From a virus: DNA of 64,000 nt. The DNA lies in the IMG/VR virus record IMGVR_UViG_3300033145_001546, positions 1 through 64,000 of that record. One strand, written 5' to 3'. Made by a program: the position numbers and the translations under genes. Positions 21,054-43,869 of the stretch are shown piece after piece; positions within the stretch are counted from its first letter, which is position 1, and the number at the start of each line of letters is the position of its first letter. The notes below the pieces were generated by a model, which was not told where the DNA came from, made no database searches, and was given only the letters and a program-made list of their open reading frames with translations.

Positions 21054-21835
21054 AATCCTATATCTCCTATATAACACCTAAAAACCAATAAACCTTATGC
21101 AAATGCAAACACCCGAAAAATTATTTTTTTTAATAAACCACCAAGTCTTTTCCCAAAATTTTCTCTATATATAACGAGTGGCCATAGATGCATATTAAAA
21201 ACTTTATATTCTGCATAAGTACCTAAGTCTTTTTTCGACTTCTCTATTCGATTCTATTATAGTACATGCACGTCCGAATTATTCGTTTTTCGGACCGTAT
21301 ATCGACTTTCCCCGAATTTCCGACCCTTCATCATCCTTTCTACCCCTATAGTCTCTTTTCCCTATTCTTACCTATCTTAAGTCCGATATACTCCGATTCC
21401 TTTTTTCCTTTTCCTTTTTCTTCTCTACCCGATTTTCTACTTACCTATCCCCCGGTTTTTTTTCCTACTTCTTCTATCCTATAAGTTTGCATGTCTTTCG
21501 GGTATCCTTACCTAAAATAAACTCATGCATGCCTTACTCTTATATCCTTTTATCGACTTTCGATTCTTACCGTCTCCCTTCGATTCTAATAGACTTTTTC
21601 GTTTATCCATGGTATAGTATCGGTCGGGCTCCGTTCGTCGATTCTCGTCGAAATCGCCTTTTCTCGGACGGTATAATCTACCCGGTCTTTTCGTCTTCGT
21701 CCGGGAATTCTCGTACTATAGCTTTATAAGCTTTCGGGTCGTATAGAAAAAAGCTATTTTCTTAAAGATTTTTCGGCCTTTTCGATACCGTAAAGGACGA
21801 TTTTCGTTTTTTATCATTTTTCTTAAAGATTTTAC

Positions 21836-21863
21836 TTTACTCGGACGATTAAAGTAGTATAAT
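21836..21863 (+). promoter_or_regulatory. Sigma70-like early promoter
   Basis: TTTACT-16 nt-TATAAT followed by CTATA, as in the promoter at 29068. Confidence 0.65.
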
Positions 21864-21870
21864 CTATATA

Positions 21871-22320
21871 GTCCGGGGGGTTTCCCGGACGGCTCTTTAA
21901 TACGCGAATATCGGCTTTAAGGTTTTTCGGGTTTCCCGGACGGTAGGATTTTCGGTCCGGTCCGGGAATTCGGAAAATCTAAAAGGGTCTTTTTACCGTA
22001 TCCGGGAAACCGATTTTTTCTTTCCGTTTACGACCGATAAGCTTTTATAACTAACCTCCGTTTTTCTTTTTAGGATTCTCGAAAAGGGTCCGGGACGTTT
22101 TCCGGACGGTCTATCCGAAAAGCGGAAAATAAGAAAAGGCGAATAACGGATAGTCGAAAGACGTCCGGAATTCCGAAAACGAAACGCCGATTTTATATCG
22201 GGGAAAAAACGGAATTCCGAACTATCGCGAAGACGAAGTAAGTCGCCGAAGAATATTCGACCGGCCCGGAAAGATATACGGTCCGGGGAAGGTTTTCGAT
22301 AACCTCCGGTCGATTCTTAT
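21871..22320 (+). ncRNA. Putative structured leader or ncRNA
   Basis: No ORF; several inverted repeats (GTCCGGG/CCCGGAC, GGTTTCCCGGACGGTA/TACCGTATCCGGGAAACC, CTATCCG/CGGATAG, GGAATTCCG/CGGAATTCC, CGACCGG/CCGGTCG). Confidence 0.45.
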
Positions 22321-22327
22321 TAGTAAT

Positions 22328-22734
22328 AGAAAATCGAAAACTTTACTTTAAGCGAAAGGGAAAGAAAAATGAAAACGAAAACGAAAATCGAAAACTATTT
22401 AGACGCTCTAAATTCTCTCGGTTTCGGAACGCCGTCTTCCGACGACGATTCCGGGACGATAATATTAGACTCCGGCGATATTATCGAATTATCGAAATTC
22501 GAGCGGGGCGGGAAGGTTTCGACCGAAGACCGAAAAGTCTCTTTTTATTTTTCCGGCGTCTCGGATCTTATCGAAATTCTCTCCGGCGGAAAAGTCGTAT
22601 ATACGACCGCCGGAGAGACCGACGAGTTTTAAGAGTCTATAAAATACGGTCCGAGAGAATCCGGACCGGTTTTTATACGCTTTTAAGAAAATCGAAAACT
22701 TTACTTTAAGCGAAAGGGAAAGAAAAATGAAAAC
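22328..22734 (+). repeat. 49-bp direct repeat (22328-22376 and 22686-22734) spanning the RBS and start codon
   Basis: AGAAAATCGAAAACTTTACTTTAAGCGAAAGGGAAAGAAAAATGAAAAC occurs twice. Confidence 0.9.
22369..22632 (+). CDS. Early hypothetical protein (acidic, 87 aa)
   Basis: GAAAGGGAAAGA RBS; no Q, H, W, C or internal M. Confidence 0.8.
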   Translation: MKTKTKIENYLDALNSLGFGTPSSDDDSGTIILDSGDIIELSKFERGGKVSTEDRKVSFYFSGVSDLIEILSGGKVVYTTAGETDEF

Positions 22735-41232: not shown

Positions 41233-41945
41233 AAAAAGATAATTTCCGAATTGAGAATATTTTTGCTCACGCTGCGGCTTTGCAACAGAGTGGTCGGCTG
41301 CGCAATACTATATACGGTTTGAAAAAATTTGTATATATTATGAATCAGGACTTCACCGTGCTCTTGCGATTTCCTTTGAGAGCACAGGAAAACCCTTTTG
41401 ATTCTCCTATATCCTTTGCAGCAAACGATTATGACAGTCCCATATTTGAAGAGCGAGACGGCAAGATATGTTTCATTCAAAAGCATGGGGACTTCGTGCG
41501 AGAGAAAAGCTGCCGCATTCCCGGACAGTCCGCAACCGATGTCCAAAAGACGTTTAAGAGTTTTGCAACTTCTGTCAAAAATAAAAACAAAGTTACTCTC
41601 AACCGAGACTTTGTGAAGTGTCTGGACGAAAGTTTGAGCCACGTGGAGTTTAGCGTGCGTAAAGGACGCTTGAAAATTAAGCAGCGAAACATCTATGATG
41701 GAAGTGTCATCACCGTTACCAAAAAGAAAAAGGCAGGATTAGGCGTGACCTCCGATGCCAAATTAAAATCCTTCAAGCCAATAGGTATAAGGACTAATGA
41801 TTTGTTAGCCCTGTTTGCCTTTGCAGGAAGCGTCTCTTTTTACTTTTCCAAAAAAGGAATCACATGGATAGAGAGTGAGGACCGGAAAATGCTTTTCACA
41901 GGCATTATAAGTCAATGTATATATGACGAGTTAGGAGTTACCTAA
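41229..41945 (+). CDS. Hypothetical protein in the modification cluster
   Basis: 238 aa, coupled; no motif recognised. Confidence 0.6.
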   Translation: MKKDNFRIENIFAHAAALQQSGRLRNTIYGLKKFVYIMNQDFTVLLRFPLRAQENPFDSPISFAANDYDSPIFEERDGKICFIQKHGDFVREKSCRIPGQSATDVQKTFKSFATSVKNKNKVTLNRDFVKCLDESLSHVEFSVRKGRLKIKQRNIYDGSVITVTKKKKAGLGVTSDAKLKSFKPIGIRTNDLLALFAFAGSVSFYFSKKGITWIESEDRKMLFTGIISQCIYDELGVT

Positions 41946-42099
41946 AAAGATGAAGGACTTAATGGAAGAAGCGAAAGATGCAATTTCGGCTCTATACAGC
42001 GATATGGACGTAGACCAAAGTGTTACAAAGGAACGCATGGAAGAATTGAAGGGTTTTATCAACGACATGGTCGATGCGTTAGGTTAGAAGGGTAATAAT

Positions 42100-42261
42100 A
42101 TGGCTGGTGGTAAGAGTAGAAAAAGTGGTGGTGTGAGTAAGGCCTTAATAAATAGATTAGTTGGAAAGAAAACCGGAAATGGAAGATCCAAGACTGACAA
42201 AAGAGGACTATTGGGAAGCAGTAAAAAATCAAAATCTGATGCCAAACTTCTGGATGACTGA
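42100..42261 (+). CDS. Possible 53-aa Gly/Lys/Ser-rich peptide
   Basis: MAGGKSRKSGGVSKALINRLVGKKTGNGRSK...; SD AGAAGGG; overlaps the next gene. Confidence 0.4.
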   Translation: MAGGKSRKSGGVSKALINRLVGKKTGNGRSKTDKRGLLGSSKKSKSDAKLLDD

Positions 42262-42994
42262 CGAGTATATCGAAAAGGCCGGTTTGATTTGGCATGAAGA
42301 TGAAGAGACCAAATACTGTGGGTGGTTGCATCCTGAATACAATACTGAGATATGCCCAAAACATTCGGAGTGGATGTTCCCGCCTATGACTTATAAAAGA
42401 CATTTTGTCCTAATGGGGAATGTCTACTCCGGCTTTCCCAAAAATCCATGTATGAATTATGAAAGCAATGAAGAATTCTTAGACTATCAATATATTTACA
42501 ACCCTGTAGATTTTATGTTTTTGGCGGGGCATAAATGGAAAGCATTTAGAAAAATCCTCCGACAATATCGTGAGAGAGTAGATGGAAAGCAGAAATACAT
42601 GAAAATAGCTTCAGATACTTTCCAAGATGCTATTGCTAAATTGCTTCTGAAGTGGGCAGGGGAAAAGGAATTTTTCGATAATGAGGTGATGATAAAGTAT
42701 GCCTTAGAGGGAGAGAACAGGTGGGGGATGTTCACAGATGAAAAATTGGTAGGATTGAATATCTGGGACGAGAATTTCATGTTTGTCAACTATCGATACT
42801 GTATAGATGATGGCACCCCCGGTCTCAATAGATATTTGCGGTACCATTTTTATACTCAAGGGGCAATTCCGAGCAAACAAAAACTTATCAATGACGGCGG
42901 TTCGCTGGGGGACGAAGGATTAAGAGAATTTAAGTTGAGACTAAATCCTCATGTCGTATACACAGTAACATCTTATAAACAAGAGAAACCATGA
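42179..42994 (+). CDS. DUF2156/LPG-synthase C-terminal-like (GNAT-fold) aminoacyl-tRNA-dependent transferase
   Basis: DYQYIY...LAGHKWKAFRK and INDGGSLGDEGLREFKLRLNP match the family pattern YIY..LxGKK..KR / IN..DLG.EGLR..K...P. Confidence 0.7.
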   Translation: MEDPRLTKEDYWEAVKNQNLMPNFWMTDEYIEKAGLIWHEDEETKYCGWLHPEYNTEICPKHSEWMFPPMTYKRHFVLMGNVYSGFPKNPCMNYESNEEFLDYQYIYNPVDFMFLAGHKWKAFRKILRQYRERVDGKQKYMKIASDTFQDAIAKLLLKWAGEKEFFDNEVMIKYALEGENRWGMFTDEKLVGLNIWDENFMFVNYRYCIDDGTPGLNRYLRYHFYTQGAIPSKQKLINDGGSLGDEGLREFKLRLNPHVVYTVTSYKQEKP

Positions 42995-43869
42995 AAAATC
43001 AAATGAAAATTGGGGTGACATTAGAAATTTTTAAGGAGCATAGCGCAATAAGGAGGGCCTATGCTTTGCCGTTGTCATCTAAGATAGATAAAGCAATTGC
43101 TTTGTTGATTGAATACGAAACGGAGGCAAAAAATATATCTAAAGACGGATATAGTTTGGCGTTTTCGGGCGGCAAGGATTCTGGCGTTATCGCAAAATTG
43201 GCCGAAATGGCAAGTATTCAACACACGATGGATTATTCAGTAACAACGCTCGACCCGCCTGAGTTAGTACATCATATCAAGGATAATTATAATGCGACTT
43301 TTCACCACCAACCAAGGGCATTACTTACAGAAATGGTAGAAAATCCAGGAGGTAAAGGGCCGCCGACAAGACACGGTCGATGGTGCTGCGAAAAATACAA
43401 AGAAAACACAAGCAACAGCCAGTGGAAAATACTGGGTATTCGCGCAGAAGAAAGCCCCCGCAGAAAAAAAAGATGGAAGCAAGTTATAATCAATAATAAG
43501 GTTTGCATCGTAAACCCAATCCTATACTGGACTATAAAAGATGTCTGGGCTTTTCATCTCGATCAAAATATCCCCAAATGCTACCTCTATAATGAAGGTT
43601 TTAAGCGTTTAGGATGCATTGGATGCCCAGTGGCGAATGTCCAACAACAGAAAATCGAGTTTGAAAGGTGGCCGAAATATAAATTTTTGTGGCGGCGGGC
43701 CTTTGATAGATTTTGGGATAAATGGCATGGTGTGCCCACTAAAAAGGGGGAACAGAGATATTTTGAAAAGTTTGGATCAGCACAAGGATTTTGGGATTGG
43801 TGGGTAAATAATGGAGCACGAAAAAAAGAAGATGCTACATGTTTAGGGATAACAGAATTATGGGGATAG
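42991..43869 (+). CDS. PAPS reductase family (PP-loop, Fe-S) protein
   Basis: FSGGKDS, RWCC, GIRAEES, NPILYW, RLGCIGCP. Confidence 0.88.
   Translation: MKNQMKIGVTLEIFKEHSAIRRAYALPLSSKIDKAIALLIEYETEAKNISKDGYSLAFSGGKDSGVIAKLAEMASIQHTMDYSVTTLDPPELVHHIKDNYNATFHHQPRALLTEMVENPGGKGPPTRHGRWCCEKYKENTSNSQWKILGIRAEESPRRKKRWKQVIINNKVCIVNPILYWTIKDVWAFHLDQNIPKCYLYNEGFKRLGCIGCPVANVQQQKIEFERWPKYKFLWRRAFDRFWDKWHGVPTKKGEQRYFEKFGSAQGFWDWWVNNGARKKEDATCLGITELWG

Follow-up and report, generated by a model that had tools for sequence, protein, structure and literature searches.

In the Yuavirus M6, which bears the 5-NedU pathway, gp52 acts on amino-acid:thymine conjugates in DNA, and sequence context determines where thymidine hypermodification occurs (PMC8989533). 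In the Pbunavirus phages F8/14-1, a modified thymidine was described at a TG motif, and about a quarter of T is replaced in F8 (preprint PMC12191111). Wifcevirus (sister genus) was found to be restriction-resistant without known genome protection (PMC11990801), and no DNA modification has been reported for it in the literature. As for the Tequintavirus phages T5 and BF23, survival of nucleases requires a first-step-transfer (FST) block free of sites (PMC10644984). No paper describing CA/TG-free or GG/CC-free early zones of phages was found.

Such a zone is present in IMGVR_UViG_3300033145_001546, an uncultured phage genome of 77,255 bp (hereafter G000). The window, the whole stretch of DNA analysed, comprises its first 64,000 nucleotides, and coordinates are window positions. 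The initial annotation had linked an early zone devoid of CA and TG to a radical SAM/PLP/aminoacyl-transferase cluster. Both features proved real: the cluster genes are all present, and the zone has 49 CA plus TG, against approximately 400 expected by arithmetic from the local base composition. The layout that had been proposed, with the zone covering a host-type promoter, leader and early genes, was also found, and segment 21270-24573 serves as the immediate-early transcription unit. It contains σ70-like promoters, a leader of ~500 nt and, with hairpins and repeat arrays between them, five small orphan genes whose products are mostly acidic:

21270..24573, no strand assigned: CA/TG-free zone, 3304 bp, with 14 CA, 35 TG and 299 CG
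21235..21263, plus strand: predicted σ70-like promoter 1, TCGACT-17-TATAGT (consensus scan, 9/12 matches)
21648..21677, plus strand: predicted σ70-like promoter, TCGAAA-18-TATAAT (consensus scan, 10/12 matches; –35 without TG or CA)
21836..21863, plus strand: predicted σ70-like promoter, TTTACT-16-TATAAT (consensus scan, 10/12 matches)
21864..22368, plus strand: leader of ~500 nt, zero CA and zero TG, with many CCGGAC-type hairpins
22369..22632, plus strand: early gene 1, 87 aa, pI 4.4, lacking C/W/H/Q and any internal Met
22727..22963, plus strand: early gene 2, 78 aa, pI 4.7
22996-23016: hairpin immediately before copy 1 of the spacer arrays
23019..23271, no strand assigned: spacer arrays, copy 1, a 21-bp unit x4, then a 15-bp unit x11.8
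23294..23542, plus strand: early gene 3, 82 aa, pI 5.0, with 5/5 TG within Met codons
23662..23862, plus strand: early gene 4, 66 aa, in the zone margin, 7 TG and 3 CA
23893-23913: hairpin of copy 2 of the spacer arrays
23916..24107, no strand assigned: spacer arrays, copy 2, a 21-bp unit x5, then a 15-bp unit x5.7
24131..24451, plus strand: early gene 5, 106 aa, pI 4.6, in the zone margin, 13 TG and 2 CA

The leader, in which the motif CCCGGACGG occurs twice (21884 and 21935), matched no family in an Rfam search, and early gene 1 gave no match in a Pfam search. The observed/expected ratios in the zone were 0.07 for CA, 0.18 for TG and 2.24 for CG, against 1.06, 1.13 and 0.71 in the rest of the genome. 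The longest CA/TG-free run reached 555 bp, the median gap being 6 bp, and the log10 expected number of such gaps was –27. This is the only zone of its kind in the whole 77,255-bp genome, and both of its edges are sharp. On the left (21269), the last CA/TG sites at normal density are 21265-21269, and the predicted start site of promoter 1, taken to be a real one, falls on this edge; on the right, the zone gives way at 24574 to the sixth small gene, whose CA/TG content is normal, as is that of the replication genes. Moreover, the zone's immediate neighbours are a small-terminase-like gene and a putative packaging region rich in AT.

The void spans both strands and affects coding and non-coding DNA alike, which points to a reader of double-stranded DNA. 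In the zone core, CA and TG are depleted to an equal degree, and all TG of early genes 1-3 are confined to Met codons. In the five early genes taken together, the coding strand has 28 TG vs 6 CA (P 4e-4), CA (TG when read on the template strand) being avoided more in the margin genes; without Met codons, the counts were 15 vs 6 (P 0.08).

The void is kept by ongoing purifying selection at the DNA level. About 32% of the possible point changes in the zone would yield CA or TG, and none of the 26 fixed differences between the paralogous spacer copies created either of them (P about 5e-5). The –35 boxes and the proteins are likewise adapted, the former being spelled TCGAAA, TCGACT and TTTACT, none with CA or TG, and the latter forgoing C, W, H and Q.

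The second feature is a module of genes at 36346-42994, which lies, as in M6, among replication genes (the genes next to it are listed as well):

36346..37506, plus strand: radical SAM enzyme 1, of the SPL/PA0069/Rv2578c-related group, with an invariant CxxxCxxC (C64, C68, C71)
37503..38366, plus strand: PLP enzyme, full-length homologue of the M6 gp52 decarboxylase
38363..40841, plus strand: radical SAM enzyme 2, interrupted by an intein bearing a DUF559 endonuclease
41229..41945, plus strand: PCNA-fold clamp, 238 aa (model pLDDT 86; Foldseek PCNA match, E 2e-9)
42161..42994, plus strand: tandem-GNAT protein of DUF2156/MprF/FemX fold (AlphaFold model pLDDT 88; Foldseek)
42991..43869, plus strand: PAPS-reductase-like PP-loop protein
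43903..44901, plus strand: replicative sliding clamp (PHROG 'DNA polymerase processivity factor')
45002..46321, plus strand: N6/N4 DNA methyltransferase
46314..49425, plus strand: UDG plus 3′-5′ exonuclease protein (46314-47513) and family A polymerase domain (48043-49425)

It is plausible that this module is a DNA thymine-modification gene set, since its PLP enzyme resembles M6 gp52 (BLASTP, 33% identity over 290 aa, E 2e-52), a relation to SPL is indicated for its radical SAM enzymes, and it includes a PCNA-fold clamp and a FemX/MprF-fold transferase. The PLP enzyme, a decarboxylase of the gp52/ViI gp226 type by homology, also matches PHROG 7093, and a putatively SPL-type radical SAM gene adjoins it, as gp53 does in M6. 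The match of radical SAM 1 to gp53 is weak (E 0.001, 21% over 189 aa) and anchored on CxxxCxxC; the radical SAM matches to the NCBIfam PA0069, Rv2578c and SPL families all fall far under the family cut-offs, and the G000 radical SAM had 0 matches in 50,697 phage records. Radical SAM 2 comes in two parts in different frames (stop 39601, ATG 39582), and no intein insertion was found in that of the relatives. The PCNA-fold clamp had a match in 20/20 whole contigs compared. The tandem-GNAT protein matched 2hqy, 4v36, 5vrv, aaPGS/MprF and FemX in Foldseek (E 4e-10 to 1e-5, TM 0.5-0.67) and, weakly and under its cut-off, the Pfam family LPG_synthase_C; by its modelled fold, it would be of the aminoacyl-tRNA-dependent transferase type, with aminoacyl-tRNA as putative donor.

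The set differs from that of M6. The M6 gp51 (amino-acid:DNA transferase, aGPT-Pplase) and gp54 (5-hmdU DNA kinase) gave no tblastn match at E 0.01 in G000 or in four other module-bearing contigs (G003, G001, G008 and G009), and G000 has instead a second radical SAM, the PCNA-fold clamp and the FemX/MprF-fold transferase. As for a dUMP hydroxymethylase (a thymidylate synthase homologue, the source of 5-hmdU in the M6/ViI-type pathway), no Thymidylat_synt or ThyX match was obtained among the G000 proteins scanned (Pfam), and the thymidylate-synthase-like gp58 of M6 had no tblastn match in G000. The proteins of G000, module included, had no match in F8 except for weak helicase and polymerase similarity. 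With regard to the earlier proposal that the cluster installs a bulky adduct at TG or CA, a modification of thymine in DNA is very probable given the gp52 homologue and the module's own clamp, and a TG context, for which F8/14-1 offer a precedent (PMC12191111), is conjectural for G000.

The expected co-occurrence of cluster and zone failed as a rule. Among 30 module-bearing IMG/VR contigs, each examined whole, the zone was found in two, G000 and G003, and was absent from the other 28, which include complete or near-complete genomes (G008, G009, G011, G014 and G017, 100%; G020, 94%; G001, 93%). The syntenic early regions of the closest relatives (G007, G021/L192, G001, G008 and G009) have normal CA/TG content and no zone. 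Zone and module are therefore not an obligate pair: the module alone does not predict the zone, and their pairing is weakly supported. In G003, a 0.85-kb first gene unit is, independently, CA/TG-free at the same relative position, in sequence unrelated to that of G000; its coding strand has 8 TG vs 0 CA, and its right edge is a terminator-like hairpin. G003 and G000 belong to one radical SAM clade of nine, and G003 carries a ThyA-like gene and a dCMP deaminase. Among the relatives, no homologue confined to G003 was detected for any G000 protein.

Conversely, a milder zone occurs without the radical SAM gene in the E. coli Wifcevirus ECML-117, in which CA/TG are depleted 5-8-fold in a CG-rich block of small early genes (~6.7-8.5 kb), a depletion much weaker than that of G000. 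Of two phages with proven thymidine hypermodification, M6 has no dinucleotide-free zone, and F8, in which the modification is reported at TG, has no CA/TG-free zone.

The reading that best accommodates these observations, to which we give a probability of roughly one in three, is that the DNA transcribed first has to be spared by a CA:TG-specific agent acting on DNA, probably a modification that the phage itself makes in TG context. CA:TG would be the recognition context of this agent, and the first-expressed DNA would be kept free of it. The leading candidate is hypermodification of the T in TG, with the module 36346-42994 as its putative writer: activation of thymine would fall to the two SPL-like radical SAM enzymes, addition of an amino acid to the aminoacyl-tRNA-type transferase, and decarboxylation of the added amino acid to the gp52-like PLP enzyme, these enzymes riding on the dedicated PCNA-like clamp. 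The zone, TG-free on both strands, would then stay unmodified in the virion and could be read at once by host RNA polymerase, or pass unseen by modification-dependent nucleases. That the context is TG, that the module is the writer and that the phage benefits in this way are all inferred.

Counted for the phage's own modification were the void on both strands, its selection, the G003 zone, the strand asymmetry, the module homologies, the precedents (context-specific thymidine hypermodification, the TG motif of F8/14-1, and the restriction resistance and CA/TG-poor early block of Wifcevirus) and the palindrome ratio. For the latter, hexamer palindromes with CA/TG are not avoided in the G000 genome (O/E 0.95), whereas those without CA/TG are (O/E 0.59), and the log ratio of 0.68 exceeds the 95th percentile of 69 control loci. 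Counted against it were the 28/30 zone-less module contigs, the normal early regions of the closest syntenic relatives, the zone-less M6 and F8 and the lack of G003-only homologues among the G000 proteins, as well as the replication genes, which are also read from incoming DNA and keep normal CA/TG. Also counted against it was the under-representation of the 4-mers TGCA and CATG in module-bearing genomes, which is not as expected if TG sites were simply protected.

In a broader form that we consider doubtful, dinucleotide-free immediate-early units would be a general phage device. The void would show in which context the phage places a bulky base modification of its own (here on T in TG), by a kinase-free route that uses radical SAM enzymes, aminoacyl-tRNA and a PCNA-like clamp. 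Genes written without that context would be readable by host RNA polymerase, or invisible to modification-dependent nucleases, during the first minutes of infection. If so, a genome sequence would be enough to tell in which context an uncultured phage modifies its bases.

A tentative alternative, only a little less likely than the phage's own modification, is evasion of a host factor. The zone would enter, or become exposed, ahead of all other phage DNA, as does the first-step-transfer DNA of T5, and a host factor acting on DNA (a defence nuclease, a short CRISPR PAM, a silencing or a DNA-binding protein) would need CA:TG, the early proteins neutralising it before it could threaten the remaining genome. 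The locus resembles the T5 and BF23 block in being short and early, in its host-type promoters and in its small host-takeover/anti-defence genes, small acidic orphan proteins being typical of the latter, and its hairpin and repeat arrays recall their non-coding, repeat-rich FST/SST border (PMC10644984). The zone varies independently of the module, which fits a host-specific pressure, and words are heavily avoided elsewhere in G000, as exemplified by CTAG (0 vs 143 expected). If packaging were lambda-like, the neighbourhood of the small-terminase-like gene and putative packaging region would make the zone the last packaged and first ejected. However, no terminal repeat was found in the G000 contig, and the placement of the zone at a physical end is putative, whereas T5 has two-step injection and a terminal-repeat location.

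Moreover, individual restriction or CRISPR sites are avoided in T5, whereas a whole dinucleotide step is purged in G000, at a cost of five amino acids, and many restriction-type palindromes are enriched in its zone. TCGA (17.9/kb), CCGG (11.2/kb), GAATTC (eight copies) and ATCGAT (ten copies) abound there, and hexamer palindromes without CA/TG reach 14.5/kb vs 5.0/kb elsewhere, only CA/TG-containing words being missing, which argues against general site avoidance. To our knowledge, no defence system or PAM reads just CA/TG, and host evasion does not predict the strand asymmetry of the margin genes.

An improbable variant is that another phage enzyme reads CA/TG, either the N6/N4 methyltransferase (45002-46321), whose recognition site might be very short, or the PAPS-reductase-like protein (42991-43869). 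Both genes are insertions in an otherwise conserved module; an N6_N4 methyltransferase gene lies inside the module in both zone-bearing genomes, and the PAPS-reductase-like gene is unique to G000 among the 30 contigs, being absent from the 29/29 others, but G003 thus lacks it, and three contigs (G012, G019 and G020) have methyltransferase homologues and no zone. As far as we know, there is no report of methylation blocking host RNA polymerase.

There is a still smaller chance that the constraint lies in RNA, early transcripts avoiding CA and UG and thereby escaping a sequence-specific endoribonuclease, be it a toxin of the host or a shut-off RNase of the phage. The zone does match a promoter-to-terminator unit, from the predicted start at its left edge to, in G003, the terminator-like hairpin, and the margin genes avoid CA on the mRNA strand more strictly than UG. 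Nevertheless, the equal depletion of CA and TG in the core would require two RNA words, for which a single double-strand step is more economical, and the void includes promoter sequence that precedes the starts at 21648 and 21836 and that would not be transcribed if these starts are real. Finally, a functionless by-product of local hypermutation (e.g., A-to-G at CpA on both strands) that turned CA/TG into CG would explain the 2.2-fold CG enrichment, as expected from such transitions, but is highly improbable, as the 0/26 spacer differences argue strongly against it, reading frames are intact with their start ATGs retained, and G003 has the same void in unrelated sequence.

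The unusual early zone described in the initial annotation was confirmed, since the 3304 bp between 21270 and 24573 hold 14 CA and 35 TG, against ~400 expected from local base composition. The longest void covers 555 bp, and the median gap genome-wide is 6 bp. A scan of all 2- to 4-mer classes revealed gaps of such size only for CA/TG and words holding it, and no other CA/TG-affected part was found in the rest of this phage genome (G000).

Observed/expected ratios of dinucleotides in the zone and elsewhere in the genome
CA: zone 0.07; elsewhere 1.06
TG: zone 0.18; elsewhere 1.13
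CG: zone 2.24; elsewhere 0.71

The left edge of the zone would coincide with the start site predicted for promoter 1 of three putative promoters, whose –35 boxes all miss the TG and CA of TTGACA, and its right edge is sharp because the sixth small gene (24574) has a normal CA/TG content.

Predicted promoters of the zone
21235-21263, rightward: sigma-70-like promoter 1, consensus match, –35 TCGACT
21648-21677, rightward: sigma-70-like promoter 2, consensus match, –35 TCGAAA
21836-21863, rightward: sigma-70-like promoter 3, consensus match, –35 TTTACT

These promoters are followed by a leader of ~500 nt with zero CA and zero TG, which matches no Rfam family; the comparison of the zone with Rfam gave chance-level matches only. 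After the leader there are five small orphan genes, of which four code for acidic proteins (pI 4.4-5.0), and Pfam had no match for the first and fifth of them, nor for the neighbouring gene (24574-24798). The first three zone proteins contain no Cys, Trp or His and a single Gln, and Met codons are the sole TGs of their genes. One ribosome-binding spacer is common to all zone genes, and most intergenic gaps present a CCGGAC-type hairpin; two gaps carry arrays of 21-bp and 15-bp units and two a short 15/16-bp array alone. A comparison with 50,697 phage records revealed no close relative of the zone DNA, and the shared spacer, used as an exact motif against IMG/VR, did not reveal any either. Upstream of the main promoters, the few remaining CA/TG (21265-21269, 21488-21492, 21524-21530 and 21608-21610) lie mostly in CATG-type palindromes, namely ACATGCAC, TGCATG, CATGCATG and CCATGG, which may have been kept for protein binding or packaging.

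The void is kept by selection. In fact, of all point substitutions that the zone could undergo, ~32% would make CA or TG, and none of the 26 differing positions in two paralogous spacer pairs creates either dinucleotide (P about 5e-5), so that recent neutral hypermutation can be dismissed as its origin. Moreover, the void is not a matter of general restriction-site avoidance, since the zone has three times the density of CA/TG-lacking palindromes seen in the rest of the genome. On the coding strand of the five zone genes there are 28 TG versus 6 CA (P 4e-4 relative to the ratio of the downstream operon), or 15 versus 6 once irreplaceable Met codons are removed (P 0.08), and the related contig G003 has 8 versus 0. 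Therefore, TG on the template strand seems to be the more strictly avoided, which is suggestive and not conclusive.

The cluster between ~36346 and 42994 also agrees with the initial annotation in being a probable DNA-modification set, and it combines a homologue of gp52 of the hypermodified phage M6, radical SAM enzymes related to SPL, and PCNA and FemX/MprF folds.

Genes of the candidate modification module
36346-37506: radical SAM enzyme 1, SPL-related group (PA0069, Rv2578c and SPL models), all below family cut-offs, with an invariant CxxxCxxC
37503-38366: PLP enzyme, 33% identity to M6 gp52 over its whole length, E 2e-52
39582-40841: radical SAM enzyme 2, same SPL-related group, below family cut-offs
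41229-41945: PCNA-fold protein, predicted model pLDDT 86, Foldseek E 2e-9
42161-42994: tandem-GNAT fold of MprF/aaPGS and FemX (aminoacyl-tRNA-dependent transferases), predicted model pLDDT 88, Foldseek E 4e-10 to 1e-5

Decarboxylation of amino-acid:thymine conjugates in DNA has been demonstrated for M6 gp52 (PMC8989533). In contrast, G000 lacks counterparts of M6 gp51 (transferase), gp54 (5-hmdU DNA kinase) and gp58 (thymidylate synthase homologue), with which Pfam scans agree. The presence of the former and the absence of the latter indicate that the cluster is very probably a DNA thymine-modification module starting by a route other than that of M6. A PAPS-reductase-like gene (42991-43869) and a methyltransferase (45002-46321) were found as insertions into the module, and no close relative of the radical SAM gene was recovered among the 50,697 phage records. 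The second radical SAM gene (38363-40841) is broken by an intein bearing a DUF559 (Vsr-like) endonuclease, an insertion missing from the relatives; the ORF of its N-part stops at 39601 and its C-part starts from an ATG at 39582 in a different frame, indicating either a split intein or a frameshift.

A profile search for the radical SAM enzyme recovered 74 IMG/VR loci, and 30 module-bearing contigs were read whole, each being scanned for all ten strand-symmetric dinucleotide classes. The co-occurrence of cluster and CA/TG-free segment proposed in the initial annotation did not emerge as a rule: the zone was present in two of the 30 contigs, G000 and G003, and in none of 80 control loci (1.19 Mb) around homologues of the VWA gene, an enrichment that is at best weak. 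Furthermore, these two cases are not independent, because both fall in one radical SAM clade of nine, and no convincing void of any other dinucleotide class was observed in the 30 contigs. Among those devoid of the zone were G008, G009, G011, G014 and G017 (each 100% complete), G020 (94%) and G001 (93%), and the regions syntenic with it have normal CA/TG in the closest relatives, namely G007, G021, G001, G008 and G009, the MoxR/VWA early genes of G007 being 51-62% identical to those of G000. No gene common to G000 and G003 alone was found, nor does any G000 protein have a detectable homologue in just G003 among the relatives. Sugar genes, which could imply a bulkier adduct, were rejected as a discriminator, since the zone-less G008 and G009 also have glycosyltransferase or epimerase genes.

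The G003 zone spans 0.85 kb and is the first plus-strand gene unit past a divergent junction, comprising a 182-aa orphan gene, whose protein matched only identical copies, a 52-aa gene and a terminator-like hairpin at its end; a plus-strand promoter at its left edge was not supported by the consensus scan. The two zones are unrelated in sequence save for the 9-mer CCCGGACGG, present in two close copies at the head of each (window 21884 and 21935 in G000; L022:17519 and 17536 in G003), which may represent a common site or may result from the reduced alphabet. The G003 module additionally carries a methyltransferase, a dCMP deaminase and a thymidylate-synthase-like gene.

Regarding other phage lineages, a hypermodified thymine in a TG motif was reported for the Pbunavirus phages F8 and 14-1 (preprint PMC12191111). 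Neither the F8 nor the M6 genome has a CA/TG-free zone, and therefore proven thymidine hypermodification does not need one; an 'AT-free' stretch at 50.6-51.2 kb of F8 was discarded as a low-complexity Lys/Ala/Glu coding tract. The E. coli Wifcevirus ECML-117 presents a CG-rich block at ~6.7-8.5 kb (L038:6700-8500) with three small plus-strand early genes and CA/TG depleted 5-8-fold, and the search of 50,697 phage records revealed no radical SAM gene in it. Considering this block and the relatives with a module and no zone, the two features are separable in both directions, and 'cluster plus zone' does not amount to a conserved system. The comparison cautions against deducing a 'system' from two odd features of one genome, the module being common (74 IMG/VR loci) and the zone rare (two of 30 whole contigs). 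Wifcevirus is a distant relative of Pbunavirus, restriction-resistant without known genome protection (PMC11990801). Its E. coli phages in the BASEL collection can be cultured and would be suitable for experiments, with ECML-117 as a practical model for testing the function of the void.

Regarding genome-wide word usage, several palindromes are at zero in G000, namely CTAG (0 observed/143 expected, Markov model), TTTAAA (0/31), ATTAAT (0/21), TTCGAA (0/15) and CCCGGG (0/14), none of the five containing CA or TG, and GATC occurs 79 times versus 285 expected. Total bans were also seen in relatives, G009 being without GATC, CGCG and CTAG, and G007 without CCGG. Such bans represent strong restriction-site avoidance in phages that also bear the modification module. 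Hexamer palindromes of G000 have an O/E of 0.95 with CA/TG versus 0.59 without, a log ratio above the 95th percentile of control loci; the comparison of module genomes with controls gave P 0.03, the controls, which were not host-matched, showing the same, weaker trend. This non-avoidance would fit modestly with protection of TG-containing sites. However, TGCA and CATG were more rather than less depleted in module genomes relative to the controls (not host-matched), TGCA being the 4-mer that differed most between 29 module-bearing contigs (G001-G029) and 69 control loci (mean log2 O/E –0.75 versus –0.09, P 1e-10), and CATG, CGCG and CTAG were likewise low in those contigs.

The interpretation proposed in the initial annotation is partly supported. 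A context-specific modification, helped by the link of the module to thymine and by the TG precedent, is the leading explanation of the void, with a probability of about 35%. If so, the void would mark the modification context of the phage itself, so that the specificity of modification in uncultured phages could be read by computation alone, and it would represent a new constraint that reshapes promoters and protein composition. An explanation by a host factor, of the type seen in T5 first-step transfer, is almost as likely, and would imply some unknown DNA reader that recognises two bases. The literature search found no description of early zones devoid of a dinucleotide.

The window covers the initial 64 kb of one viral contig of 77,255 bp, 100% complete according to CheckV and classed as linear in IMG/VR, with no close cultured phage (its large terminase does not exceed 36% identity to any of the 50,697 phage records). 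Minus-strand structural genes run from 21077 downwards, followed by a divergent region, a long plus-strand operon spanning ~21.3 to 61.2 kb and, lastly, sugar-nucleotide and tail genes in a block on the minus strand. Shortly after the zone come genes for a MoxR-type AAA ATPase and for a DUF2201 metallopeptidase/VWA protein, both common to G006, G007 and G021, and then one for a small sigma-70 region-2 protein (26385-28592 and 29351-29884 for this group), which probably acts as the sigma factor of the phage for its later genes. A poly-Asp tract of ~105 GAC/GAT codons (52633-52949), within a conserved 418-aa replication-module protein (51844-53100), accounts for the odd dinucleotide counts at 52.6-52.95 kb, a stretch that was dismissed as a further zone. 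Finally, a sugar-nucleotide cluster adjoins the tail genes:

Window 61390-64000 and L026:1390-10766, minus strand: nucleotide-sugar transferase, cytidylyltransferase, FkbM methyltransferase, epimerase, FdtA-like cupin, NDP-hexose C-methyltransferase, LicD and GT2

The products of this cluster might decorate either the proteins of the virion or the DNA adduct, and zone-less relatives carry similar sugar-nucleotide genes.
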